Origin: Bdellovibrionota bacterium
GTDB taxonomy: Bacteria; Bdellovibrionota_C; UBA2361; JBGSMV01
Assembly (NCBI GenBank): GCA_041739995.1
Contig: JBGSMV010000042.1
Coordinates: forward strand, 32,001 to 96,000
DNA length: 64,000 bases
Direction: 5' to 3'
Positions 2,041 to 38,298 of this stretch are shown piece after piece (position 1 is the stretch's first letter; each line of letters begins with the position of its first letter). Under the pieces are notes generated by a model, which made no database searches, was not told the origin of the DNA, and worked only from the letters and a program-made list of their open reading frames with translations. The position numbers were made by a program, and so were the translations under genes.

Positions 2041-4671
2041 ATGGGCAAGTTTTTACGCATAGTTGCAGCGGTTTCTTGTGTCGGTTTGATGGCAGCGTGT
2101 TCGGGTTCGCCCTCACGAATCACGCCGGATACCAACAATTCGAGTCTTCCCGCTCTGGGCGAGGCTTCGTCTCCTGGCGATGTTGCAGCGAACGATTCCG
2201 CTGTTAGTGATTCCATTGGCAGTGATTCAATTGGCAGTGATTACTCTGAGTATGCGGCTTCTGGCTCGACCGAAGTTCCAGCGAACATACAAGTATCGAC
2301 CAGAATGTTGCGTGCGCCCACTACTTCTGAGTTGGGTGTCGAATTGGTAGATGGTAGTGGTTTCAATAAAATCGTTGTACGTCGCGGTGCGTCGTCTCAA
2401 GCGATGTCCGACACTGAATCCCGCCCATTCAAATTTGAAGTGAGCCGTCTAGAGAATCCACCACGCTTAGTGGTCGATGTGCTTGGCTATTCGAATCAAA
2501 ATCCCCAAAGTTTTGTGACCGCGGATTCTGATCTCGTAGAGCGCGTTCGAATTGGCGCGCACCCCGAGAAGAGTCGTTTCGTTCTTGACCTCGTTGAGGG
2601 TCAGGAAATTGAGCATCGCGTCGAAGGAATTCGACAAGGTGCTGAGGTCATGGGCCGCTCCTCTGGCGAAGAGCTGGTAGTGACTATTGCGCGCCCAAAT
2701 ACCATGCAGGTTGCCTTGGCAGCAGATGCTCTCCAAACCGGTGGAACGAATGATTTCACCTCTCCATCTGAGCCAGACGTGCGCGCTTCATTCGGGGAAG
2801 ATGTCGAGACTGCAGAAGTCGTGGTCGCCAAGGAGACCATCGAGACTTCACCTGCGGCGTTACCAGAGGTTGCGGTAGCGGAAGTAGGAACCGTTGAAGT
2901 TGCCGAAGTAGAAAACATTGAGCGACCGCGAATCGTGGCTTTGTCGCTTGAGCCCGTAGCTCCAGGCGAGAACATGATAGTTGCTCAGATCTCCGGAAAC
3001 CCCATGTTCGACCTGAAGAGAACGGCCCCTTCAGAGTATGTTCTTTCAGTTGATGGAGCTGAAGTAGATGCCTCGGCCATGAACACTTTGGTGGCGGTTC
3101 CTGGAGCCGGACAAATTCGAACGGTGCGCCCGGTAGTTGCGGGCAATGATGTGCTGCTTCGAATATTCGCAGAGCCCACGGCAGTTCTTACCTCTCGTGC
3201 TGCTAATGGCCGGATAGTGATTCTAACCCGCAGTGATTCGCCCGATGCGCGCGCTCAGATGGACCCAACTGCTGCTGAAGCCGGGGCTTCGACGAGTGAA
3301 GAAGTGAAGGTGAGCGCAGAGAGCTCTGGACCAAGCGAGCTGGACGTTGGTGTGGCCGCGTTACTCGGCGACCAGCCCATGTACACTGGTCGACTCATTT
3401 CACTCGATCTTCAAGACACTGACATCGACAACGCGTTGCGAATTATCGCAGAGGTTTCCAACCTGAACATTATTGCGAGTGACGATGTTACCGGAAAGGT
3501 AACGCTGCGTTTGATTGATGTTCCTTGGGACCAGGCTCTTGATGTCATTCTAAAGACCAACGGTCTCGACAAAGTCCAAGAAGGAAACGTGGTGCGTATC
3601 GCTCCGGTTGAGAAGCTCCGACTCGAGCGCGAAGCTCTCAAACAGGCGCAGCAGGCTGAAGAAGAGCTTGAGCCACTTCAGGTGCGATATATCAGAGTAA
3701 GTTACGCCAAAGCGTCTGACTTGCGTCCTCTAATTGAGTCCGTAGTGTCTGAGCGTGGATCGGTAGCCTACGACGAGCGTACCAATCAGCTAATTATCAA
3801 AGACATCCGCAAGGGCGTGAAGAACGTCGTGGAATTGGTTTCTAAGCTTGATTTAAGAACCCCGCAGATTTTGCTTGAAACCCAAATCGTAGAAGCGAAT
3901 AGAAATCTTCTTCGAGCGCTTGGCACGAACCTGGGGTTCAAGTCTATTCAGTCCCCAGAAACTGGAAACGCGACAGGGTCTAACTTTCCGAACTCAATTG
4001 CGGTCGGAGGGGCTTCGACATTTCCTGCCACAGCGGTTGATCCTACTCTAGGAGGAGCGTCGCTCGCACTATTGCTAGACAGCGCTGATGGGACCAAGTC
4101 TCTTTCCATCCGACTGAATGCTCTTGAACAAGAGGGGCGGGTAAGAATTGTAAGTCGTCCCGCAGTGGCGACTACCAACAACACGCCAGCGATCATTAGG
4201 TCAGTTGAGAAAATTCGTGTGAAGACACCAAGTGGTGGAACCGTAGTTGGGGTTGGACAAGGCTCAACTCCGTCAAGCGGTGGTTCCACGGCTACTGAGA
4301 GCATCGAGATTGGTATCATTCTCGAAGTTGTTCCCCAAGCGTCACCGGATTACTTCGTATTGCTCGATCTAAATGCCAAGTCGAGCACTTTCGGCTCTCA
4401 AGTCGTCGATGGTATTCCTTCTGAAATTGAGCGTAGCGCTACCTCTTCTGTGCTGGTTTCGTCGGGACAGACTTTCGCGATGGGAGGAATTTACCGAATT
4501 ATCGATAGTGATACGGTAACAGGCGTGCCTTTCCTTAAAGACCTTCCTGTATTTGGACACCTCTTTAGAACGATTCAAACTGACAACAGAGATGAAGAGC
4601 TAATCTTCTTCGTTACACCGCGAATCATCGAAGGAAGTTTTGATGATGCGGCAATGAAGGTAGCGCTCTAA
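2041..4671 (+). CDS. pilQ: Type IV pilus secretin PilQ with lipoprotein signal and AMIN-like domains
   Basis: ORF is open from 1813, but the likely start is ATG 2041 (GGAGAGGGG upstream, lipobox LMAAC). Motifs: 'RLENPPRLVVD' AMIN, 'YTGRLISLDLQD', 'VPWDQALD', secretin C-term 'GVPFLKDLPVFGHLF...ELIFFVTPRII'. Confidence 0.95.
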   Translation: MGKFLRIVAAVSCVGLMAACSGSPSRITPDTNNSSLPALGEASSPGDVAANDSAVSDSIGSDSIGSDYSEYAASGSTEVPANIQVSTRMLRAPTTSELGVELVDGSGFNKIVVRRGASSQAMSDTESRPFKFEVSRLENPPRLVVDVLGYSNQNPQSFVTADSDLVERVRIGAHPEKSRFVLDLVEGQEIEHRVEGIRQGAEVMGRSSGEELVVTIARPNTMQVALAADALQTGGTNDFTSPSEPDVRASFGEDVETAEVVVAKETIETSPAALPEVAVAEVGTVEVAEVENIERPRIVALSLEPVAPGENMIVAQISGNPMFDLKRTAPSEYVLSVDGAEVDASAMNTLVAVPGAGQIRTVRPVVAGNDVLLRIFAEPTAVLTSRAANGRIVILTRSDSPDARAQMDPTAAEAGASTSEEVKVSAESSGPSELDVGVAALLGDQPMYTGRLISLDLQDTDIDNALRIIAEVSNLNIIASDDVTGKVTLRLIDVPWDQALDVILKTNGLDKVQEGNVVRIAPVEKLRLEREALKQAQQAEEELEPLQVRYIRVSYAKASDLRPLIESVVSERGSVAYDERTNQLIIKDIRKGVKNVVELVSKLDLRTPQILLETQIVEANRNLLRALGTNLGFKSIQSPETGNATGSNFPNSIAVGGASTFPATAVDPTLGGASLALLLDSADGTKSLSIRLNALEQEGRVRIVSRPAVATTNNTPAIIRSVEKIRVKTPSGGTVVGVGQGSTPSSGGSTATESIEIGIILEVVPQASPDYFVLLDLNAKSSTFGSQVVDGIPSEIERSATSSVLVSSGQTFAMGGIYRIIDSDTVTGVPFLKDLPVFGHLFRTIQTDNRDEELIFFVTPRIIEGSFDDAAMKVAL

Positions 4672-27108: not shown

Positions 27109-28014
27109 CTAGGCGATATCTTTAAGGTTTTCTACGATCATAGTACCCACGCCTTCGTTTAAGAACAGCTCCATGAGCAAAGAGTCACTCCTGGTTCCGT
27201 CTATTATATGGGCGCGGTGCACACCGCCCTTTATCGCTTCAAGGCAAGCTTGGACTTTGGGCAACATGCCCGCCGTAACCTTGCCCGCTTCGACCATATC
27301 TTGAATCTGTTCAATATCAGCGTAGGAGACCAAAGAGGTTGGTTCAGATACGGAACGAAGCAGTCCAGGAACGTTCGAAAGTACGATCAGTTTTTCAGCG
27401 CCGATCGATTGTGCGACCTTAGAAGCAAGTGTGTCGGCATTGATATTAAAAATCTGCCCGCTCGTGCTCGCCGCTATCGGTGAAATTACAGGGACAAGAT
27501 TTTCCTTAAGAAACTTGCCTATCAGCTCCGTATTTATGGACTCGATCACGCCGACGTTCTCGAAGTCCACTAATTCAGTGCCGCCTTGATCTGATTGGAC
27601 ACGAAGTGGGGGACGCTTTGACGCAAGCACGATTTGAGCATCGGCACCCGAAAGCCCTAGTGCACGCACTCCATGTTTACCGAGTGCCGTGGTTACTGAT
27701 GTGGCCAGTTCGCCACAGAACACCATTACGGCAGCCTTCAGCGTCTGGTCGTCGGTGATACGTCGGCCCGCCTTTTTTACGGTCTCTAGCCCAAGTCTTT
27801 TGCTCAGCACATCAAGCTGAGGGCCACCACCGTGTATCAGCACAACCTTCATGCCAATGTGATGAATCAAGCTAATCTGACGGGCGACGTTTTCAAGTAC
27901 CGCTCCAGTGCAGAGTTCGCCGCCAAGTTTTAGGACAAATGTCTTGCCCTGAAACTCACGTACATAAGGGAGAATTTCTGTAAGCGCTTCGATACGGTTC
28001 ATGGTGTTCCTCAT
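27109..28014 (-). CDS. argB: Acetylglutamate kinase
   Basis: 'FVLKLGG', 'HGGGPQ', 'RITD', 'NINAD', 'GMLPK'; alternative start 28002. Confidence 0.93.
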   Translation of the reverse strand: MRNTMNRIEALTEILPYVREFQGKTFVLKLGGELCTGAVLENVARQISLIHHIGMKVVLIHGGGPQLDVLSKRLGLETVKKAGRRITDDQTLKAAVMVFCGELATSVTTALGKHGVRALGLSGADAQIVLASKRPPLRVQSDQGGTELVDFENVGVIESINTELIGKFLKENLVPVISPIAASTSGQIFNINADTLASKVAQSIGAEKLIVLSNVPGLLRSVSEPTSLVSYADIEQIQDMVEAGKVTAGMLPKVQACLEAIKGGVHRAHIIDGTRSDSLLMELFLNEGVGTMIVENLKDIA

Positions 28015-28036: not shown

Positions 28037-29068
28037 TCACAGGTCAGTTTTAAGAATTTTTAAAAGCAAAGCATTCTGGGCGTGCATTCGGTTCGCCGCT
28101 TGCTGCTCAGTAAGGCTGCGTTTGCTGTCCAGTACTTCATCCGCTACTTCAACGTTCCGTCTTACCGGTAGGCAGTGCATGAAGTAAGAATCATTTCCGT
28201 GAGCCATGACTTCCTGGTCCATTATCCAAGGAAGCAACGACTTGCGATGTTCTAGTTCAAGTTCGCGGTGTCCTATAAAGCCAGGAGGTGTCCAACTCTT
28301 TGCGTATACAATATCAGCTCCTCGAACCGCCTGTTCTTGCTCATAGAAGACCTCGACGGATCCACCAGAACTGCCTGCGGCACTCTGAATCATAGACATT
28401 ATCTTTGGATCGAAGTCGTAGCCTTCCGGATGGGCAATGCGCAGTTGCAGCCCAAGTTGTGCGGCAATCAGCGCCGTGGAGTGAGGAACCGCAAGAGGAA
28501 GTTGTTTGGGGTGCGGTGCCCAAGAGAGGGTAAAAACCTTGCCGTGTAGCTTGTTGCCGAAAGTTTCGCGCAATGTGAGGGCATCGGCCAAGGCCTGACA
28601 GGGATGCCAGCAGCTTCCTTCCATACTAATAAGGGGAATATCAAGATGCTTGGTGAAGGCCGAGAGCACTGGTTCATCTCGGTCTTCCTCCCAAGAGGAA
28701 AGCTTGGAGAATGCTCTGACGCACACCGCATCAAAGTACTGAGAAAGCACTCCCGCTGCATCTTTGATGTGCTCAGTGCGGTCCCTATACATCATGGCAC
28801 CGTCCGCAAATTCCAGAGTCCACGAGTCGGCTCCTGGGGAGAGGACGACCGATTGTCCGCCGAGGCGAGCAATACCGGACTGAAAGGAGGCTCTAGTGCG
28901 CAGAGACGGGTTAAAAAACATAAGAGCAAGTACTCGCCCTGAAAGAGACGAGGAGAAGTCACGCCAGTGGCTTGATTTTCCCTTGGCTGCGAGTGCAAGG
29001 GCTTCGTCCAGCTCTTGGAGCGTCAAATCTGAAGTGCTTATAATTGATCTAGAAGATTTAGAAACCAT
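28037..29068 (-). CDS. argF: N-acylornithine (acetyl/succinyl) carbamoyltransferase, ArgF' type
   Basis: 'FFNPSLRT', 'W.LEF..G..M....EH', 'HPCQ', 'WAPHPK.LP.AV', 'YAKSW', 'HCLPVRRN'. Confidence 0.9.
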   Translation of the reverse strand: MVSKSSRSIISTSDLTLQELDEALALAAKGKSSHWRDFSSSLSGRVLALMFFNPSLRTRASFQSGIARLGGQSVVLSPGADSWTLEFADGAMMYRDRTEHIKDAAGVLSQYFDAVCVRAFSKLSSWEEDRDEPVLSAFTKHLDIPLISMEGSCWHPCQALADALTLRETFGNKLHGKVFTLSWAPHPKQLPLAVPHSTALIAAQLGLQLRIAHPEGYDFDPKIMSMIQSAAGSSGGSVEVFYEQEQAVRGADIVYAKSWTPPGFIGHRELELEHRKSLLPWIMDQEVMAHGNDSYFMHCLPVRRNVEVADEVLDSKRSLTEQQAANRMHAQNALLLKILKTDL

Positions 29069-29121: not shown

Positions 29122-30228
29122 TTACGGGAAAAGTGCGGCTGCGCAGAGCCCGGTAGTCTCAGGGATGTGGTACATCAAATTCATGTTTTGAATGGCATTT
29201 CCTGCGGCACCCTTTACCAGATTATCTAGCGTACTAATGACTACGACTTCGCTTCCTTGTTGCCGAACGGTTATGTCACAGAAATTTGAGCCGCGTACAT
29301 CGAGCACCCGTGGAGTAACGTCTCTATAGCGCATGAAGAACTCAGTCGCGCAGAATTTCCGGTAGAGTTCGACTACATCTACAGAGCCGTCGGGAATGGT
29401 AACGAAGCTTGTGGAATAGATTCCTCGCGAGAAGTTGCCAGAATGTGGAACCAGATGAATCTTGGTAGCGCCACTTTGCGCGAGGGAGAGCGCTTGCTCG
29501 ATTTCTGGGCCGTGCCTATGAGTCAGTACCTCATATGAACTCATGGATTCGTTTCTTGCTGGGTGATGTGTTTTGGCGGTGGCGGTCACGCCACTACCTG
29601 TGGATCCAGTCACCGCTGAGACTCTCGCAACAAGTGGATGTTTGCCAAAGTGAAGAACTAAAGGGAGAAGTCCCAGCGTTACGCAGTTTGCAAAGCAGCC
29701 TGGGTTTGCCACTAGTCGAGCAGACTTTATGCCGTCACGGGAAACCTCCGGCGTGCCATACACCGCCTCGGCAATCAGTTCAGGGCAGGGGTGCTGTTGT
29801 TTATAAAACTGACTAAAGTGTTCAGCGGAAAGTCGAAAGTCTGCCCCTAGATCAATGATTCGCAGATCGCCCGAGACAAAACGCTCACATTTGGATATGG
29901 CGCCGATAACCGGAGACGACTGAGCGTGAGGTACTGCAAAGAACAACAAATCAAGTTCCGCAAAAGCGCTATCGAGCACTTCGATAGGTGAGCCAAGCGC
30001 TGGTGGTTCAACAAAGATGAGGGGGCAAAGTCCTTCAAGCGACGGATGCACTGACGCCACGCTTTTCCCGGCATACTCTCTGGAGGTGACAAGGGCTAGA
30101 TCCGCTTGGACATGGTTTAAAAGCAGGCGCATGAGCTCTAGACCGACGTAGCCCGAGCCTCCGAATACGCCTACTTTGAGCGGTGCTCCACTCGAGGGCT
30201 GCCTCTGGTTTTCTAGAGACCTCTTCAT
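29122..30228 (-). CDS. argC: N-acetyl-gamma-glutamyl-phosphate reductase
   Basis: 'GGSGYVGLE', 'IDLGADFRL', 'ANPGCF', 'DNLVKGAAG.AIQNMN'. Confidence 0.94.
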   Translation of the reverse strand: MKRSLENQRQPSSGAPLKVGVFGGSGYVGLELMRLLLNHVQADLALVTSREYAGKSVASVHPSLEGLCPLIFVEPPALGSPIEVLDSAFAELDLLFFAVPHAQSSPVIGAISKCERFVSGDLRIIDLGADFRLSAEHFSQFYKQQHPCPELIAEAVYGTPEVSRDGIKSARLVANPGCFANCVTLGLLPLVLHFGKHPLVARVSAVTGSTGSGVTATAKTHHPARNESMSSYEVLTHRHGPEIEQALSLAQSGATKIHLVPHSGNFSRGIYSTSFVTIPDGSVDVVELYRKFCATEFFMRYRDVTPRVLDVRGSNFCDITVRQQGSEVVVISTLDNLVKGAAGNAIQNMNLMYHIPETTGLCAAALFP

Positions 30229-31289
30229 GGAAGCTCCTCACCGAAAACTTGCTTGTATACAATCCCTGCGAACTCCCTGCCATCGCGCATAGCATTAGCT
30301 GCCTGCAATTTGAGTCTTGAACGAATGAAGTTTTTGCCCACGTCATTATCTGTGCAGGGGCCACAAATCACGGTTATTTCGTGGCATGGATGGTCGGACG
30401 GGAGGTTCGACAAGAACTCGTGAGCGCCCCAAGCAGCTACTGGATCGTTTGCACTTACCACGTGGGCAGAGGTAAATTTCATAATCTCTGGATCAGAAAG
30501 AATCGACATTGTGCCGTACTCGCCCATGATGCCGTCACCAAGTTCTAACACGATGCAGTCTGGCTTCTTCTCGCTGAGAGCTGCGATGACGCCTTTTGCT
30601 GAAGTAACTGCGTTGTCCGCAGTTGAAGTAACTATACCCGCGTCGGTAAAGTTCAGCACCGCGACTGCGCCGCAATCTGCCATTGCAAGCGTATCGCGCA
30701 TTAGGCTTACGCCCGTGAGCTTTGCCGCGCAGACCTTCTTCCCGGCGCGAGTAATGTGTTTCACCAACTCACAGGCCGCTCTGGTTTTCCCAGCATCCAT
30801 GCAAGTTCCAGAAATAACAATGAGTGGGGCGGCGTGGGGCAGGTCTTGTCGGGGGCGAATTTCGCCTTCGAGAATGGACGCTGGGGAACCGACACGTTGC
30901 AGAAAGTTAGGAAAATGCTGTACTGCTCCAAGCACTTCCATGTCTATGGGACGTCCGAGTTCAGCGTTGTCGCTAGTGCACTTGCCGACCACGCCTCCCA
31001 GATTCAGTATCTGCAACGTTTCACCGACCTTAATGGATTGAGGCACAATGCCACTGAATCCCTTTAAGGCGTTACGGGGACCCAAGACGCCAACTACGAC
31101 GTCATCACGATAGAGGCGGCTCATGCGCCCGGAAGCCAGCTCGATGGTGTTATAGTCAGAGCGCTCGTTGAGCAGGCGCCCAGCGATGATGAAGCCCTCT
31201 TTCGCGGTGATGTCGGGTGAAAGCGTGAGCTCAGACGAGAGCTTGGCGTTTCGAGCGGCGGAAGCGATTTTATCAGCGACAATTTTCAT
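30225..31289 (-). CDS. DUF1611-like P-loop protein of unknown function within the arg operon
   Basis: 'GTCMDAGKT' P-loop, 'AAKLTG...RD...M.D.GA....FTDAG..ST', 'ELGDG'; 4-nt overlap with argC. Confidence 0.7.
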   Translation of the reverse strand: MKIVADKIASAARNAKLSSELTLSPDITAKEGFIIAGRLLNERSDYNTIELASGRMSRLYRDDVVVGVLGPRNALKGFSGIVPQSIKVGETLQILNLGGVVGKCTSDNAELGRPIDMEVLGAVQHFPNFLQRVGSPASILEGEIRPRQDLPHAAPLIVISGTCMDAGKTRAACELVKHITRAGKKVCAAKLTGVSLMRDTLAMADCGAVAVLNFTDAGIVTSTADNAVTSAKGVIAALSEKKPDCIVLELGDGIMGEYGTMSILSDPEIMKFTSAHVVSANDPVAAWGAHEFLSNLPSDHPCHEITVICGPCTDNDVGKNFIRSRLKLQAANAMRDGREFAGIVYKQVFGEELP

Positions 31290-31309: not shown

Positions 31310-31963
31310 TCACTTAAGCTTGGGGCTCTCTCGTCCAGAGATTGAATTCAGAATTCGTAGGGTGCGAGGCGCGTCTTCCTCGGTCACCACCATCATGAGC
31401 TCAGTCCAGCAGCTCATCTCTTCGACCACGTTCACTCCCTGCTCAGCGAGCACCCCGTAGATGAACGACACCACCCCGGGGGTTGATTCTAGGCGCTCAT
31501 CAAACAGCATTGAGATTTGAACGAGGTCAGCGCTGGTCTTTTTTATCTTACCTCGGAACTGTGCGCGAATTTCGGGTAGGTAATCCTGATTGGTGATCAG
31601 CACCAACACTTCAGCGCCTTCAATCAGGTGAAAGTCTCCGCGCTCTTGTCGCACAAAGGACTGAAGGCGATGCAGCTTCTCAAAGTCGCGGGGCTTTTCA
31701 ACGATGGCAACCGCCATTTGGTTGGTAGTGCGGATCGAGACACTTTTAAGGAGTGCACGCACCTTGGTCTCAAGCGACTCTTTTCCTTTTACGCGCTCAG
31801 AGTAGCGACGGCATGCCACCAGCACAGCATCAAAGTGTTTATCGCCAAACTCCTCGCAGATTTCCCGTGAGAGCGCAGAATAGTTTATCAGACCGCGCTT
31901 AAGGCAGTCCCGCACACTAGGACGCTCTGAGATGTAGTGCTGGGTGAGGCGGGTGATAGACAT
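31310..31963 (-). CDS. ACT-domain putative transcriptional regulator (archaeal-like)
   Basis: Likely start 31963 (ORF open to 32029). N-terminal 'DCLKRGLINYSALSREI...AVLVACRRY' helical/HTH-like part, C-terminal ACT 'TPGVVSFIYGVLAEQGVNVVEEMSCWTE'. Confidence 0.75.
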   Translation of the reverse strand: MSITRLTQHYISERPSVRDCLKRGLINYSALSREICEEFGDKHFDAVLVACRRYSERVKGKESLETKVRALLKSVSIRTTNQMAVAIVEKPRDFEKLHRLQSFVRQERGDFHLIEGAEVLVLITNQDYLPEIRAQFRGKIKKTSADLVQISMLFDERLESTPGVVSFIYGVLAEQGVNVVEEMSCWTELMMVVTEEDAPRTLRILNSISGRESPKLK

Positions 31964-32032
31964 GGGCGAGAAAAGAGATTGGGGGTTTGGGCGCGCTGCG
32001 CCCGCTATCGATTTCGCAATCTTGGTCAACAG

Positions 32033-32138
32033 TGTCCAGCATTGGACTACTCTGATTGTTTATCAATGCGAGCTGCGGATCAAGGGCAACGACAGGTCTC
32101 AAGCCCGAAGACGGACATAATTGTCCTATATCGGACAA
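32033..32138. promoter_or_regulatory. Candidate operator palindromes TGTCC-N6-GGAC in the divergent arg intergenic region
   Basis: TGTCC-AGCATT-GGAC at 32033-32047, TTGTCC-TATATC-GGACAA at 32121-32138, extra GGACA half-site at 32113. Confidence 0.55.
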
Positions 32139-32221
32139 GAGAGTTCTTCGCAGTTGGAGCTATTCTTGATGTTCGTGATAGCCTTTAGCCTCACGTTACG
32201 ATCAATCAAGGTGAGCGAGAG

Positions 32222-33439
32222 ATGCCTAAGAAAGTAGTGTTAGCATACAGCGGCGGTTTAGATACTTCATTTTGTATTCCCTATCTGAAGGAAGGTGGTT
32301 TCGAGGTGACTACCGTAACTGCGGATACGGGAGGATTTTCAGACTCAGAGCTGAAGACCATTTCGCAGCGATCAAAGGAGCTCGGCGCAACCCAGCATAT
32401 TACTGTGGATTTGAAGGAGCAGGTGTATCAACGCTTTGTCTCCTACGTCATTAAAGGCAATGTGCTGAGAGGGCAAGCGTACCCACTGTGTGTGGGAGCA
32501 GAGCGCGGCATCCAAGCCGAGGCTCTTGTAAGAGTGGCTCAGGAAGTGGGCGCACAGGCCGTGGCGCATGGCTGCACCGGAGCGGGAAACGACCAGGTGC
32601 GCTTTGATATTTCTATCAAGAGTCTTGCGGGAAATTTGCAGATTATTGCGCCCATTCGTGAACTGGATTTGAGTCGAGAAGAAGAGGTGCGGCGCCTTGC
32701 CGAGTGGGGCTTCGATTTTCCAAGCGTAAAAAAGAAGTATTCAGTAAACCAGGGCATCTTGGGCACGACTATCGGTGGCGGTGAAACGCATGATTCCTGG
32801 ATGAAGATTCCAGAAGAAGCCTGGGTCATCACCAAGTCACCTGAGGCTTCCGGAGCTAAACCAGCAGAAATCACCATTAAGTGGGAAGCGGGAATGCCTG
32901 TTGAGCTAGACGGCGTCACCTTTTCGAATAAGGATAGCAACAGTCATGAGCTCCTTGTGCGCCTGAATGAGCGTGGCGGAGCGCTTGGCGTTGGACGAGG
33001 TATTCACATCGGAGACACAGTGCTTGGAATCAAGGGCAGAATAGCCTTTGAAGCTCCGGGTGCCATGATCTTGATCGCAGCTCACCGTGAGCTTGAGAAG
33101 CTTGTGCTCACGAAGTGGCAAATGCAGGTCAAAGACCAGGCGGCCAGTACATACGGCATGCTGTTGCATGAGGGGCAGTATTTTAATCCTGTAATGCGCG
33201 ACCTCGAAGCTTTGATGGACTCGAGTCAGAGCATGGTGTCGGGCGAAACGTTAGTGCGATTGGAACACGGTCAAGTCTCAGTGGTTGGAGTTCGAAGCCG
33301 GCATTCTCTGATGGACGCTCGCGCTACCTACGGCGAAGGAGCAAAGCTCTGGACCGGCGCTCAAGCTGAAGGCTTCTGTCTCATTTCTGGAGTTCAGAGC
33401 ATGTTGGCTGGGGGACGCAGTACGACTGCGAGGAGCTAA
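32222..33439 (+). CDS. argG: Argininosuccinate synthase
   Basis: 'VVLAYSGGLDTS', 'HGCTGAGNDQVRF', 'GIKGR..FEAP'. Confidence 0.96.
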   Translation: MPKKVVLAYSGGLDTSFCIPYLKEGGFEVTTVTADTGGFSDSELKTISQRSKELGATQHITVDLKEQVYQRFVSYVIKGNVLRGQAYPLCVGAERGIQAEALVRVAQEVGAQAVAHGCTGAGNDQVRFDISIKSLAGNLQIIAPIRELDLSREEEVRRLAEWGFDFPSVKKKYSVNQGILGTTIGGGETHDSWMKIPEEAWVITKSPEASGAKPAEITIKWEAGMPVELDGVTFSNKDSNSHELLVRLNERGGALGVGRGIHIGDTVLGIKGRIAFEAPGAMILIAAHRELEKLVLTKWQMQVKDQAASTYGMLLHEGQYFNPVMRDLEALMDSSQSMVSGETLVRLEHGQVSVVGVRSRHSLMDARATYGEGAKLWTGAQAEGFCLISGVQSMLAGGRSTTARS

Positions 33440-33741
33440 GCTTTTCGCAAATTAGCGCTAATTTTGGAGTCCACGGAGGCGGGGGCCACTTAATGTGGGT
33501 GCACCTCGCGGCTGTGCAACCCAAACCCGGTTCGACCGCACGCGGCGTAGTGCGCCATCTCCAGGCCTCAAGTGGAGCAATTTGCGGCCCCAAAGTCTTT
33601 CGAGTCCTCGCACATCAGGTTAGAACCAGGAGGCTTCGCCTCTATTGATGCGCTATCGGTGTGAGGGCAAGCGCTGAGCTTCCCCGTGTATTCGCGCTAG
33701 TCTCTGCAGACCATTCCAGTGACTTTCGAAATAGGACATAC

Positions 33742-34869
33742 ATGAATCAATCTCCATCCTTTGTTTACCACTTTCGTAGGTCACGAATGCTGAGCGCATG
33801 TCTGGCAATAGCGTTTGGTCTCGTTGTCCCGACCGCGGTCGAGGCCCAAGCCGCAGCTGGACGTCCTATTCCAGTGCTTGTCACACGCGTAACCTTGCAG
33901 CCCTTAGTCGATCGCATAGAAGCTCTGGGAACCCTGCGATCCAATGAGAGCGTGGACCTTACCGTCACAGTGACCAAGACGATTAGCGCCATTCACTTTG
34001 AGGACGGCCAGAGAGTTGAAAAAGGGATGTTGCTCGCAGAGATGACCAGCACGGAGGAGAGCGCCCTCCTCAGGGAAGCTCGCGCAGAGGTGAAGGAGGC
34101 GCAAATCCAATACGACCGACTTACACCCTTAATTGAGCGCGGAGCGGTGCCAACCAGTACCGTTGACGAACGCAAGCGCAATCTCTCAACCGCTCAAGCA
34201 CGAGTGCAAGCTATCCAGTCGCGCCTTCAGGATCTTCTTATTGAGGCACCGTTTGACGGTGTGGTGGGCCTTCGAGGCATCAGTAGAGGTGCGCTGGTTA
34301 CTCCAGGAGCACTGGTTGCCACGATTGATGACGATTCGATAATGAAATTAGATTTCTCGGTTCCGAGCACATTCTTACCGGTATTGAAATCAGGTTTGAA
34401 GGTGCGTGCGCGGGCTCGTGCATTTCGAGACGAAGTATTTGAGGGAGAAGTAAGCAGCGTTGATACTCGAGTCGACCCGGTAACCCGCGCAGTAGCTATT
34501 CGTGCGCTCATTCCAAATCCAACGCGACGACTCAAGCCCGGACTTCTTATGACGGTCGAACTTATGAAAGACCCTAGAGAATCACCAGTGGTACCAGAGG
34601 AGGCCATCATCTCAGTGGGGAGAGAGCATTCGGTATACGTTGCCATTTCTCCCGACCAGGGCGCCCCAACAGCGTTACGAAGGGTAGTGCAAATTGGTGC
34701 TCGAGAGCCGGGACGAGTGGAGATTACCGAAGGCGTTACCCCAGGAGAGCTAGTAATTATTCATGGCACGATGATGTTAAGTCCGGGGGCCCCGGTAAAA
34801 ATCCTCAAGGAGCTAGCCGCAGAAGATTCTATCAAAGATGTTCTTCGTAACCTCACGCAGGAGCAATAG
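33742..34869 (+). CDS. RND efflux membrane fusion protein
   Basis: 'ALGTL.SNESV', 'IEAPFDGVVG', 'RVDPVTR', 'LKPGLL'; likely start 33742 (ORF open from 33661). Confidence 0.93.
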   Translation: MNQSPSFVYHFRRSRMLSACLAIAFGLVVPTAVEAQAAAGRPIPVLVTRVTLQPLVDRIEALGTLRSNESVDLTVTVTKTISAIHFEDGQRVEKGMLLAEMTSTEESALLREARAEVKEAQIQYDRLTPLIERGAVPTSTVDERKRNLSTAQARVQAIQSRLQDLLIEAPFDGVVGLRGISRGALVTPGALVATIDDDSIMKLDFSVPSTFLPVLKSGLKVRARARAFRDEVFEGEVSSVDTRVDPVTRAVAIRALIPNPTRRLKPGLLMTVELMKDPRESPVVPEEAIISVGREHSVYVAISPDQGAPTALRRVVQIGAREPGRVEITEGVTPGELVIIHGTMMLSPGAPVKILKELAAEDSIKDVLRNLTQEQ

Positions 34870-34871
34870 GC

Positions 34872-37800
34872 ATGAGGCTCTCGGACGTCTCAATAACTCG
34901 CCCAGTTTTTGCCTCGGTCATTTCTCTGATCCTGCTTGCTTTCGGCATGGTCAGTTTCTCCCGTCTTCCTCTACGCGAGTATCCAGACATTGACCCGCCG
35001 ATTGTTACCGTAGAGACGAGTTATCGTGGAGCATCCGCTGCAGTAGTAGAGACACGAATCACCGAACTTATAGAAGATCGCATCTCAGGCATTGAAGGCA
35101 TTCGCTACATTCAATCTTCAAGCCAAGATGGTCGTTCTCAGGTCACCGTTGAGTTTAACGTCGAGCGAGATATTGATGCGGCAGCAAATGATATTCGTGA
35201 CCGCGTATTTAGTATCTTGGATGATTTGCCCCCCGAGGCTGATCCGCCAGAGATTCAGAAAGTGGACGCCAATGAGGATGTGATTATTTGGCTGAATCTT
35301 GCCAGTGATCGCCTTTCTGTCCCCGAGCTTACCGATTACGCTGAGCGTTACCTACTTGATCGATTTTCTGTGCTTGATGGTGTGGCACGCGTTCGCATTG
35401 GGGGAGAGCAGCGCTATGCCATGCGAGTTTGGCTTGACCGCATAGAACTCGCTGCTCGTAACCTCACTACCGAGGATATCGAGAATGCGCTTCGCAGAGA
35501 AAATGTCGAGCTTCCCGCAGGAAATATTGAATCGCTTCAAAAGCAGTTCACGGTGCGAGTCGATCGCCCTTTTGAGGATGCTTCACATTTTCAACGGATT
35601 GTAGTGAGCCGAGGGGGTGATGGCTACCTGGTGCGTCTCGGGGATGTCGCCCGAGTAGAAAAAGGTACCGAAGAGGATCGGGTCATGTTTCGCGGCAATG
35701 GAATTCCCATGGTCGGCCTCGGGATCATTAAACAAAGCACCGCCAATACGATTGAAGTTGCTCGGGGCGCTAAGGAAGAGATGCAGCGCCTGAATCCCCT
35801 TCTTCCGCAAGGAATGAGCCTGAATGAAAGTTACGATAGCTCCGTGTTTATTGAAGGGGCCATTAATGAGGTTTACCAGACGCTCTTCATTACTATTCTA
35901 TTGGTAGTGGCGGTGATCTATCTTTTTTTGGGGAGCGTTCGAGCGACCTTAGTGCCCGCGGTTACGGTGCCGGTATCAATCGTAGCGACGTTTATCGTGC
36001 TGTATGCGCTGGGCTTGTCTATTAACATGCTCACCCTGCTTGCATTGGTGCTTGCTATTGGAATGCTCGTCGACGATGCAATCGTCGTGCTTGAGAACAT
36101 CGTTCGCCGTATGCAGTTATATGGCGAAACTCCGCTTGTAGCTGCATTTAAAGGCACCCGAGAAGTAGCGTTTGCGGTAGTCGCAACAACATTGGTGTTA
36201 GTAGCGGTATTCGCGCCAATCTCATTCCTCGAAGGTAATATTGGTAAGCTCTTCCTCGAGTTTGCGGTCACGATGTCGGCGGCAGTGTGTTTCTCGAGTC
36301 TCATTGCGCTCTCTCTTTCCCCTATGATCGCGTCAAAGATTCTTGGTCGCGGCCAGGGGACTCCAAGCAAAGTGACGCAGTTCATGGATCGCTTCTTCGC
36401 CAGGTTGCATGGCCAGTACAGGAAATTGCTCGCCGGTAGCCTGGAGCGGCCACGTCTGATTGCCGCTCTGTTTCTTGCCACACTCCCTTTGGTGGCAGGG
36501 CTATTTATGATTCTTCCCTCTGAGTACACTCCTAAGGAGGATCGTGGCGCATTCTTTGTTCAGGTGAACGGCCCCGAAGGAGCTTCCTATCAGTACATGG
36601 TTGATTACATGGACGAGATTGAGCGTCGTCTAATGCCACTTGTAGGTGACGGGGGGATTCAGAGACTTTTGGTGCGCGCGCCGCGAGGTTTTGGTGGGCA
36701 GATAGCGTTTAATACAGGACTTGTTATTTGCACTTTGCGTCCCTGGGGCGAGCGAGATTCCGCATGGGATCTGATGGGTCGAGTCACTAAGATGCTTGCC
36801 GATCTTCCAGGCGTGCGTGCATTTCCGGTAATGCGACAAGGCTTTGGAGGAGGAATCCAAAAGCCAGTACAGTTTGTTTTAGGGGGTGGCACGTATGAGC
36901 AGCTAGCCGAGTGGCGTGACACCATTGTGCAAAAAGTGAACGAAGCCAATCCTGGTTTTGTAGGCCTGGATTGGGATTACAAAGAGACAAAACCTCAGAT
37001 TCGCGTCCAAATCCATTACGATCGCGCAGCTGATTTAGGCGTCAGCGTAGAAACAATCGGCAGAACCCTTGAAACCATGTTGGGGTCTAGGCGTGCTACC
37101 ACCTACATCGAGGGTGGCGAAGAGTATGATGTGCTGATTGAAGGAGAACGCGACACGCAGAGAACCACTCGCAATGTTGAAAGCATTTACGTGCGCTCCG
37201 ATCGTTCTGGTCGACTGATTCCACTCTCTAACTTGGTATCCATGGAAGAGATTGCTGATTCGAGTTCCCTCAATCGCTACAATCGGGTGCGATCGGTCAC
37301 CCTAGAGGCCAATCTTTCTGATCAGCTCTCGCTTGGTAAGGCGCTTGCTCACCTAGAAAACCTCGTCGCAACTCATCTGCCCGAGGAGGTGGTCGTGGAT
37401 TACAAGGGCCAATCGAAGGACTTTAAGTCGTTCGGAGGCTCGGTCTTATTCACCTTTGTCCTAGGGATTTTGGTAGTGTTCCTGGTACTTGCTGCCCAGT
37501 TCGAAAGTTATATCCACCCGCTTGTAATCATCCTCACCGTTCCGCTCGCCGTGTTGGGTGGGCTGATAGGATTGCTAGTGTCTGGAGGAAGTTTGAATCT
37601 TTTCACTCAAGTCGCGTTGATTATCTTGATAGGAATAGCGACGAAGAACGGAATTCTCATTGTAGAGTTCATAAACCAACTTCGGGAGCGTGGAACTGAG
37701 TTCATGCAAGCGATTCAGGAAGCGTCTGAAGTTCGATTCCGTCCGGTACTAATGACCGCGGTTACTACCGTTGCAGGAGCGGTTCCGCTGCTTCTTGCCA

Positions 37801-38000
37801 GTGGACCAGGGTCTGAAACCCGTTCCACCATTGGCTTTGTAGTATTCTTTGGAGTTGGGGTTGCCACAATTTTTACCCTGCTCGTAGTACCCGTGGCGTA
37901 CTCTATTCTCGCACGACAGACCGGTTCTCCCGGAGATGTCGCTCGTCGGCTTGAACACGAGCAATCAGCGGTGACTCAGCCAGCTCAGGCGAGTAGCTAG
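34872..38000 (+). CDS. RND efflux permease (AcrB/MexW-like)
   Basis: 'LPLREYPDIDPP', 'LAIGMLVDDAIVVLEN', 'KNGILIVEF', 'RFRPVLMT'. Confidence 0.96.
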   Translation: MRLSDVSITRPVFASVISLILLAFGMVSFSRLPLREYPDIDPPIVTVETSYRGASAAVVETRITELIEDRISGIEGIRYIQSSSQDGRSQVTVEFNVERDIDAAANDIRDRVFSILDDLPPEADPPEIQKVDANEDVIIWLNLASDRLSVPELTDYAERYLLDRFSVLDGVARVRIGGEQRYAMRVWLDRIELAARNLTTEDIENALRRENVELPAGNIESLQKQFTVRVDRPFEDASHFQRIVVSRGGDGYLVRLGDVARVEKGTEEDRVMFRGNGIPMVGLGIIKQSTANTIEVARGAKEEMQRLNPLLPQGMSLNESYDSSVFIEGAINEVYQTLFITILLVVAVIYLFLGSVRATLVPAVTVPVSIVATFIVLYALGLSINMLTLLALVLAIGMLVDDAIVVLENIVRRMQLYGETPLVAAFKGTREVAFAVVATTLVLVAVFAPISFLEGNIGKLFLEFAVTMSAAVCFSSLIALSLSPMIASKILGRGQGTPSKVTQFMDRFFARLHGQYRKLLAGSLERPRLIAALFLATLPLVAGLFMILPSEYTPKEDRGAFFVQVNGPEGASYQYMVDYMDEIERRLMPLVGDGGIQRLLVRAPRGFGGQIAFNTGLVICTLRPWGERDSAWDLMGRVTKMLADLPGVRAFPVMRQGFGGGIQKPVQFVLGGGTYEQLAEWRDTIVQKVNEANPGFVGLDWDYKETKPQIRVQIHYDRAADLGVSVETIGRTLETMLGSRRATTYIEGGEEYDVLIEGERDTQRTTRNVESIYVRSDRSGRLIPLSNLVSMEEIADSSSLNRYNRVRSVTLEANLSDQLSLGKALAHLENLVATHLPEEVVVDYKGQSKDFKSFGGSVLFTFVLGILVVFLVLAAQFESYIHPLVIILTVPLAVLGGLIGLLVSGGSLNLFTQVALIILIGIATKNGILIVEFINQLRERGTEFMQAIQEASEVRFRPVLMTAVTTVAGAVPLLLASGPGSETRSTIGFVVFFGVGVATIFTLLVVPVAYSILARQTGSPGDVARRLEHEQSAVTQPAQASS

Positions 38001-38298
38001 TTCCTCCCTAGCCTGCGGTTAGGGGTGACTTGAGTTGCCCTTTTCACAATGAAGGCAAAAGCTATGGAAGGAGCTTCGAATGAAGGCCTTTGTCTAAATT
38101 CGGAACTCCAGGGCGTGCTTGTAAGGGGCAGAGTACGGTGGCGACGGGCTAAACTTCCCCTAAATTAATACGTTTTTCTTATAAATTCAGCGCTATTTGG
38201 TGATTCGGAGCTGCCGAACCTTGGTGTTCCAGGCCTCAATCGTGTAAAACACCGCCCTTAACATTTACTTAAACTTTACCTAGGTTTGGCCCTTAGTC

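Follow-up and report, generated by a model that had tools for sequence, protein, structure and literature searches.

A candidate arginine regulator with a DUF7523 N-terminal domain and tandem ACT sensor, and its proposed palindromic operator, in a Bdellovibrionota bacterium and in DPANN archaea

What controls arginine biosynthesis in a bacterium in whose genome ArgR is not found? The question is raised by a 64,000-nucleotide stretch of DNA from a Bdellovibrionota bacterium (contig JBGSMV010000042.1, positions 32,001 to 96,000 of the forward strand; the whole stretch is called the window below). Here argG is divergent from an operon with the gene order reg, DUF1611-like, argC, argF', argB, and the first gene of this operon, reg (31313–31963, reverse strand), encodes a protein of 217 residues. 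A reading made earlier from the sequence alone (the sequence-only reading) had proposed that this protein, with a helical N-terminal region and a C-terminal ACT domain, is an archaeal-style, arginine-sensing repressor which controls both arms through a TGTCC-N6-GGAC repeat and heads a possible ArgR-independent regulon. On the evidence below, we consider it likely that reg encodes a sequence-specific transcription factor of an uncharacterised family which binds as a dimer to TGTCY-N6-RGACA, regulates its own gene, controls both arms, senses an amino acid (likeliest arginine) and does the job of ArgR. It probably belongs to a new family of amino-acid-sensing transcription factors that serves arginine genes in this branch and is of archaeal origin.

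The reg and argG genes are separated by 257 bp, in which two operator-type sites (O1 and O2) and a degenerate flanking site are located. Measured from its centre, O1 precedes the argG ATG by 93 bp and the reg ATG by 166 bp; the centre of O2 is 77 bp upstream of the reg ATG, and both its position and its sequence are kept in the same-genus sister genome G001. The sister species also has a weak site flanking the strong one (6.4 bits at −149 in locus L004; at −156 here, locus L003). TGTCC-N6-GGAC is found in the window only at O1 and O2, with 3 strand matches, as compared to a mean of 0.38 and a maximum of 2 in 100 shuffles of the window, none of which reached 3. In the 3.8-Mb genome the full palindrome TGTCC-N6-GGACA is present in two places (O1 and one on contig C52), and its backwards control in 1. 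The two copies of the repeat, and the half-site beside O1, are exactly as described in the sequence-only reading. Control of both arms, as it had suggested, would be consistent with the strong site before argG and the conserved weak site before reg.

The motif was derived by palindrome-constrained expectation maximisation from the 330 bp upstream of 16 bacterial homologues from relatives of this genome; L018 (no upstream DNA) and L020–L022 (distant paralogues) were left out. The resulting motif is 20 bp long, with the core TGTCY-N6-RGACA and an AT-rich centre, and a site of at least 12.9 bits is present in all 16 training regions. At eight of these loci (L011–L017 and L019) none of the arg genes of the window is found within 1.5 kb of the regulator. 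An independent test used the best 80 of 198 relatives in species-representative genomes, with a cut-off of 13 bits and a zone of 400 bp upstream of reg. The 30 bacterial-labelled loci come from Bdellovibrionota/Oligoflexia-type metagenome-assembled genomes, and the 50 archaeal-labelled loci, among which one labelled Nomurabacteria is counted, are mostly DPANN (Woese-, Nano-, Iain- and Micrarchaeota). None of the archaeal loci was used in training, and 51 of their 64 sites fall in the zone, which represents 5.4% of the DNA; for the bacterial loci the figures are 24 of 25 sites and 5.2%. The backwards control matrix gives 2 archaeal and 2 bacterial sites, with 0 in the zone. Directly upstream of homologues the enrichment is about 15–20-fold. 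The half-sites vary independently (TGTCC, for example, is paired with AGACA), which disfavours an RNA hairpin. The candidate operator has therefore held up: in Bacteria and Archaea alike, homologues keep the palindrome upstream of their genes. It marks the regulator's own gene in divergent genomes, and target genes only where the factor is present.

Searches by tblastn with the window proteins find argG at 30 of the 50 archaeal and 7 of the 30 bacterial loci, usually divergent from reg, and at least one arg gene within 4 kb at 34 and 10 loci, respectively. Archaeal sites that are not directly upstream of reg mostly precede arg genes, being upstream of argG-argH (L048, L095), argG-carA (L090), argJ-argB (L061, L064), argF (L064, L077) and argC (L066); in L058 the site lies between argG-argH and a divergent operon that combines an arginase-family gene with reg. 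The sites in L063 and L065 are beside open reading frames (ORFs) without assigned function. In one bacterial genus reg is unlinked from argG and located beside a GNAT gene. All three genomes of this genus have a site upstream of argG (13.8, 16.8 and 20.9 bits), in each case the only one of at least 9 bits in the 5.5–7 kb fetched, which suggests that the regulator acts in trans. Fourteen genomes of the same order carry argG without a regulator orthologue (3 of them with ArgR), and in these there is no site of 12 bits or more within 600 bp upstream of argG; the best has 10.1 bits. At bacterial loci where reg is away from argG, the divergent neighbour is a GNAT acetyltransferase of 350–385 residues or an arginine-deiminase/DDAH-superfamily protein (L011:249–1406, L013:2298–3356 and L017:2330–3394, the last being the arginine-deiminase/DDAH-superfamily gene). 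The GNAT neighbour could possibly be an N-acetylglutamate synthase; both kinds of neighbour are arginine-related. Separately, in L090 (Woesearchaeota) an inserted AbiEi/AbiEii toxin-antitoxin pair separates the regulator gene from the operator region of argG (2372–3986).

Fifteen archaeal upstream regions were selected for a site near −40. In 11 of these the site directly adjoins a box of the TTTATATA or TTTAAATA type, and this box lies about 22–29 nt before the start codon, as expected for a B recognition element (BRE) and TATA box. Several archaeal regions have a second site beside an oppositely oriented box that faces argG. The geometry suggests interference with, or recruitment of, the TATA-binding protein and transcription factor B (TBP/TFB), and is compatible with either sign of control. 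In the mechanism that we propose, a reg dimer, or a higher assembly of dimers, would bind the palindromic operators, and binding in the region between the reg operon and argG would give autoregulation together with control of both arms. An amino acid, most likely l-arginine, would bind at the ACT interfaces and change the affinity for DNA. The most likely outcome would be repression when arginine is plentiful, by which reg would take the place of ArgR, which the genome appears to lack.

A rival reading concerns the ligand and the sign of control. It is unlikely, in our judgement, that reg binds the palindrome as something other than an arginine-responsive repressor, that is, as an activator, or as a sensor of ornithine, citrulline, N-acetylglutamate, lysine or aspartate. 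Aspartokinase-type ACT modules bind lysine or threonine in solved relatives, the distance of O1 from the argG ATG would also suit an upstream activator site (no promoter was placed there), and some neighbours are of a catabolic type (the arginase-family gene in L058 and the arginine-deiminase/DDAH-superfamily gene in L017). The archaeal site directly upstream of a TATA-like box can be read in the same way, this position being used by archaeal repressors and activators alike. Set against this, the genes that appear to be regulated are overwhelmingly arginine-biosynthetic, for which end-product repression is the usual logic, and no evidence points to another specific ligand. Arginine-responsive repression is the form of control that we favour for reg.

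The minus-strand ORF of reg spans 31310–32029 and has an alternative TTG start at 32029; the start is most likely the ATG at 31963, because 45 homologues align from that methionine. The N-terminus of the protein matches the Pfam family DUF7523, which has no assigned function, with 32.4 bits against a curated gathering cut-off of 27 (29.4 bits in the genome search). The match covers residues 27–97 of the longer, TTG-started translation and only positions 4–71 of the 158 in the profile. ACT_7 (20.5 bits) and ACT_9 (17.3 bits) are both under their Pfam cut-off of 27. The AlphaFold model, made with an alignment of 46 sequences, has a mean confidence (pLDDT) of 94.9 and contains five helices (residues 3–73) followed by two beta-alpha-beta-beta-alpha-beta units, which bears out the helical N-terminal region and C-terminal ACT domain of the sequence-only reading. 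The top Foldseek matches of the C-terminal 150 or so residues are aspartokinase regulatory subunits (E values from 1.8e-8 to 4e-7, probability 1.00); the best is 4go5 (E 1.8e-8, TM-score 0.64 by target length), and 2dtj and 3c1n are also found. A profile search gives the aspartokinase 3l76 (E 2.3e-5). By the model and Foldseek, reg has the ACT superfamily fold as a tandem pair, though the sequence models score below cut-off.

The N-terminal domain (N-domain) would be the part that contacts DNA. Its net charge is positive in 80 of the 81 family members (mean +6.8); outside this domain, 70 of the 81 proteins are acidic. R33, R52 and R53 are invariant across homologues. Modelled alone, the domain has a pLDDT of 85.5. 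A wide structural search gave assorted helical proteins, with some homeodomains and transposase DNA-binding domains among them (Z 4.5–5.9), all in the range of chance for helical domains; in the protein atlas it falls only in hypothetical or DUF7523 clusters. A Pfam scan of reg (E ≤ 0.01) gave no ribbon-helix-helix, winged-helix, AsnC or RAM family. We regard the weak results of the fold searches as speaking neither for a new fold nor against DNA binding. When homologues with TGTT-type sites (11) were compared with those with TGTC-type sites (31), no N-domain column separated the two cleanly, in a comparison that amounts to about four independent contrasts.

A reg homodimer is predicted with a score of 0.75, compared with 0.00 for the best control; at least 94% of contacts are shared between runs, with a partner pLDDT of 85 or more. 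In calibration, 20 of 30 proteins whose solved structure is a pair of one chain passed the mark for a homodimer, as did 1 of 23 whose solved structure is a single chain. The predicted interface consists of N-domain residues 9–34 and ACT loops, and R33, R52 and R53 are absent from the listed interface residues. Such a predicted dimer fits a palindromic site. Because aspartokinase regulatory subunits have been solved as dimers, the prediction could partly reflect likeness to, or memory of, those structures.

The same likeness raises the alternative that reg is an allosteric subunit of an arginine-pathway enzyme, in the manner of the aspartokinase beta subunit or IlvH and acting on ArgB or the DUF1611-like enzyme, while another factor binds the palindrome. 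The match of the tandem ACT module to aspartokinase regulatory subunits such as 4go5, and an N-domain that falls in no recognised DNA-binding family, are what such a subunit would be expected to show, and several sources do label reg homologues 'aspartokinase' (other labels are 'hypothetical' and 'ACT domain-containing'). The palindrome, however, tracks the reg gene in Bacteria and Archaea, even at loci without a nearby arg gene, and there is no other obvious factor common to these loci in the two domains. Sites at unlinked argG are found only in genomes that carry reg, the N-domain is basic and highly conserved, and the neighbours include no constant enzyme, since argG, DUF1611-like, GNAT, APH-family and arginase-family genes vary from locus to locus. 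We therefore rate an enzyme subunit as highly improbable, and retain reg itself as the likely operator-binding protein.

The two ArgR domains, PF01316 (the N-terminal winged helix, Arg_repressor) and PF02863 (C-terminal, for arginine binding and oligomerisation), were found neither in the reg protein nor in the genome, which is 91% complete; the genome search for PF01316 did detect its control genomes. The independence from ArgR that had been suggested for this locus agrees with this result. Among 41 genomes of the order, 17 have a strong regulator orthologue (E < 1e-30), 7 have ArgR_C, and 2, from one genus, have both. For the archaea, a sample of 121 genomes was taken from the phylum containing a complete DPANN genome. 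Here argG is present in 12 genomes, two of which (G041 and G042) entered the sample via the regulator loci themselves; each of the 12 gives a strong match to the regulator (E ≤ 4.3e-59), which in 11 lies within 2.3 kb of argG. Of the 109 genomes in the sample without argG, 10 have a strong match. ArgR_C (PF02863) was not found in the three DPANN genomes checked.

A matrix scan of the genome of this bacterium found one site of at least 18 bits, which is O1. The word regulon, used for the locus earlier, is an overstatement for this genome: the scan gave no further credible site, and dispersed sites were seen in relatives. A wide regulon was accordingly rejected; the matches of 17.0 and 16.4 bits adjoin collagen-like/sigma-factor and Fic/multicopper-oxidase genes. 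In this genome the controlled set appears to be the argG/reg divergent region only.

Several observations weigh against reg as a DNA-binding regulator of arginine genes. At 15 bits or more the genome has 3 real sites and 4 control sites, and the next-best motif matches are not near arg genes. A match of 13.1 bits upstream of typA-argH (38089–38108) was rejected as chance; the sister genome G001 has typA-argH and no site of at least 9 bits there. O2 scores just 9.5 bits against the family motif, compared with 22.0 for O1, and a consensus scan of 31900–32260 placed no sigma-70-like promoter or terminator. In G018 and G034 the regulator is present and there is no site near the unlinked argG; in G009 the only site (13.6 bits) is 1.5 kb upstream of the unlinked argG. 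Among the 41 order genomes, argG is present in about 31, and in 11 of these neither the regulator nor ArgR was found; with one genus having both, the two are strict alternatives only in part. The related genomes are not independent samples. As for the protein, its C-terminal module resembles the regulatory subunits of enzymes, and Pfam, Foldseek, VIA-align and PDB profile searches assigned the N-domain to no recognised DNA-binding fold or family: Foldseek against the PDB gave nothing at E ≤ 0.001, the profile search of PDB sequences gave no match, and the best VIA-align score (Z 6.0, root-mean-square deviation 2.4 Å, 71 residues aligned) is among mixed helical proteins and within chance for helical bundles. 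It is barely credible, and already disfavoured, that the repeats match by chance or are generic elements of a promoter or terminator, with no relation to reg: the motif centre is AT-rich, like a −10 or TATA box, O2 is weak and the site at 38089 is apparently chance, but the window has three matches where 0.38 are expected, O1 is the top match in the whole genome, the enrichment upstream of homologues is absent with the control matrix, and the half-sites vary independently.

The origin of reg was addressed with a tree of 81 family members, in which two paralogues served as outgroup. All 31 bacterial sequences cluster together, which takes one change of label. Together with six DPANN sequences they form a clade (SH-aLRT, an approximate likelihood-ratio support, 99) that is nested among the other 44 archaeal sequences. 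The style recognised as archaeal in the sequence-only reading finds its counterpart in this nesting, and in the preponderance of archaeal-labelled, mostly DPANN, loci among the best 80. A transfer of the regulator from archaea to bacteria is likely, judging from the tree; it falls short of proof because the outgroup sits on very long branches and the tree was limited to the best 80 loci. Of 14 control genomes, only that of Haloferax volcanii has DUF7523. DPANN genomes have up to five full-length paralogues each, with three within 9 kb on contig C13 of G094. A wider proposal is that proteins with DUF7523 and tandem ACT form a previously unrecognised superfamily of one-component transcription factors whose DNA-binding domain would be new and all-helical, perhaps a main family of amino-acid-responsive regulators in DPANN. 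The arginine branch and its operator would have been transferred once into the ancestor of the Bdellovibrionota lineage and would have taken over the role of ArgR, keeping the same motif despite different transcription machineries. We advance this tentatively, with the balance tipping slightly against it.

The genome of this bacterium itself contains a distant paralogue (contig C58:41726–42496, reverse strand, about 26% identity), whose neighbours include photolyase and MoxR but no arg or amino-acid genes and which shows no obvious palindrome. The layout of the paralogues, seen also in L040:546–1115, is a helical N-domain with an N-x-S-x-L-A-R-like helix followed by tandem ACT (22–27% identity). 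Some record labels disagree with the grouping of the sequences. L077, labelled Candidatus Nomurabacteria (a bacterium of the candidate phyla radiation, CPR), groups tightly with a Woesearchaeota sequence (SH-aLRT 99), and many loci recorded as Methanosarcinales ('uncultured Methanosarcinales') or Thermoplasmatales have AT-rich DNA and fall among DPANN sequences. Such labels may reflect mis-binning or coarse classification.

The features of the locus are listed in Table 1. The carbamoyltransferase is of the N-acetylornithine type and not an ordinary ornithine carbamoyltransferase; therefore, the arginine pathway here probably runs via N-acetylcitrulline. The 354-residue protein encoded between reg and argC gave no family in a Pfam search, and has a feature score of 0.99 in the protein atlas to clusters named DUF1611. 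Its gene is kept between reg and argC in at least nine loci from bacteria and one from Iainarchaeum (L082, 48% identity). The protein is a candidate alternative N-acylglutamate synthase. The GapMind 2026 preprint predicts such an enzyme ('alternative ArgA', a distant DgcN homologue; 10.1101/2024.10.14.618325), and the 354-residue protein may be the one predicted there. Downstream of argG, a resistance-nodulation-division (RND) efflux pair (HlyD-type adaptor and AcrB-type pump; 33661–38000, forward strand) is located between argG and typA-argH. In G001 the DNA fetched beyond argG contains typA-argH, and tblastn with both pump proteins found nothing in it; in G004 argH directly follows argG.

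Table 1. Genes and candidate operator sites of the reg–argG locus, in window coordinates
Feature	Position	Strand	Remarks
argB, acetylglutamate kinase	27109..28014	-	TIGR00761, 218 bits (cut-off 151.3)
argF', carbamoyltransferase of the N-acetylornithine type	28037..29068	-	NF003384, 384 bits (cut-off 288)
argC	29122..30228	-	TIGR01850, 313 bits (cut-off 233.6)
P-loop protein, 354 aa, distant DUF1611 relative, between reg and argC	30225..31289	-	DUF1611, E 0.035; synteny
reg, candidate regulator	31310..31963	-	217 aa + stop; residues 1-75 basic five-helix N-domain (DUF7523), about 76-210 aspartokinase-type tandem ACT
O2, candidate operator	32031..32050		variant AGTGTCC-N6-GGACT (TGTCC-N6-GGAC at 32033-32047); 9.5 bits
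Degenerate flanking site	32100..32119		3.7 bits; contains the half-site GGACA (32113-32117); offset from O1 by one 20-bp register
O1, candidate operator	32120..32139		TTGTCC-N6-GGACAA, perfect 6-bp inverted repeat (32121-32138); 22.0 bits, the genome's best match to the family motif
argG, argininosuccinate synthase, candidate divergent target	32222..33439	+	TIGR00032, 327.7 bits (cut-off 268.2)

Full-text literature searches, whose coverage leaves out most subscription journals, turned up nothing that describes the reg family as a regulator and no paper that mentions 'DUF7523'. The analysis gives a predicted function, DNA motif and target set to a family that is annotated as hypothetical, as ACT domain-containing or, wrongly, as aspartokinase. 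It offers a possible answer to how arginine synthesis is controlled where no ArgR is found, which is the case for this genome, for 34 of the 41 relatives from its order and for the three DPANN genomes checked. The locus would be a rare case of the same regulator–operator pair kept across Bacteria and Archaea, and a natural system for studying how one DNA-binding protein meets promoters of the sigma-70 type and of the TBP/TFB type. The N-domain may be a new DNA-binding fold, and the ACT sensor could serve as an arginine-responsive switch.

The known system closest to reg in apparent role is ArgR/AhrC, which is likewise a small regulator encoded with arg genes, has palindromic operators in arg promoter regions and is autoregulated (as is predicted for reg). 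Within the order ArgR and reg seem largely mutually exclusive, co-occurring in 2 of 41 genomes. The two proteins have no sequence or domain relationship, the sensor of reg being a tandem ACT and not the ArgR hexamerisation domain, and we take the reg operator TGTCY-N6-RGACA to be unlike the ARG box. With the regulatory (beta) subunit of aspartokinase, reg shares the fold of its C-terminal 140–150 residues (10–18% identity) and a predicted homodimer through the ACT module. Unlike that subunit, reg is encoded outside lysC by a stand-alone gene, with argG on one side and a DUF1611-like gene on the other; it adds a basic helical N-domain of 75 residues, and is tied to arg genes and the palindrome, not to a kinase. 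A DNA-binding domain is joined to an ACT or ACT-like sensor in NikR, in TyrR/PhhR and in Lrp/AsnC (RAM domain; LysM in archaea), and Lrp-type factors are known amino-acid-responsive regulators in archaea. The one-component logic, in which an ACT-type module for a small molecule governs a DNA-binding domain, would be the same in reg. The components differ: the N-domain of reg is all-helical and has no classified relative, reg matches neither the winged-helix N-domain nor the AsnC_trans_reg (RAM) family of the Lrp/AsnC feast/famine regulatory proteins (FFRP), and its sensor is the double ACT of the aspartokinase type.

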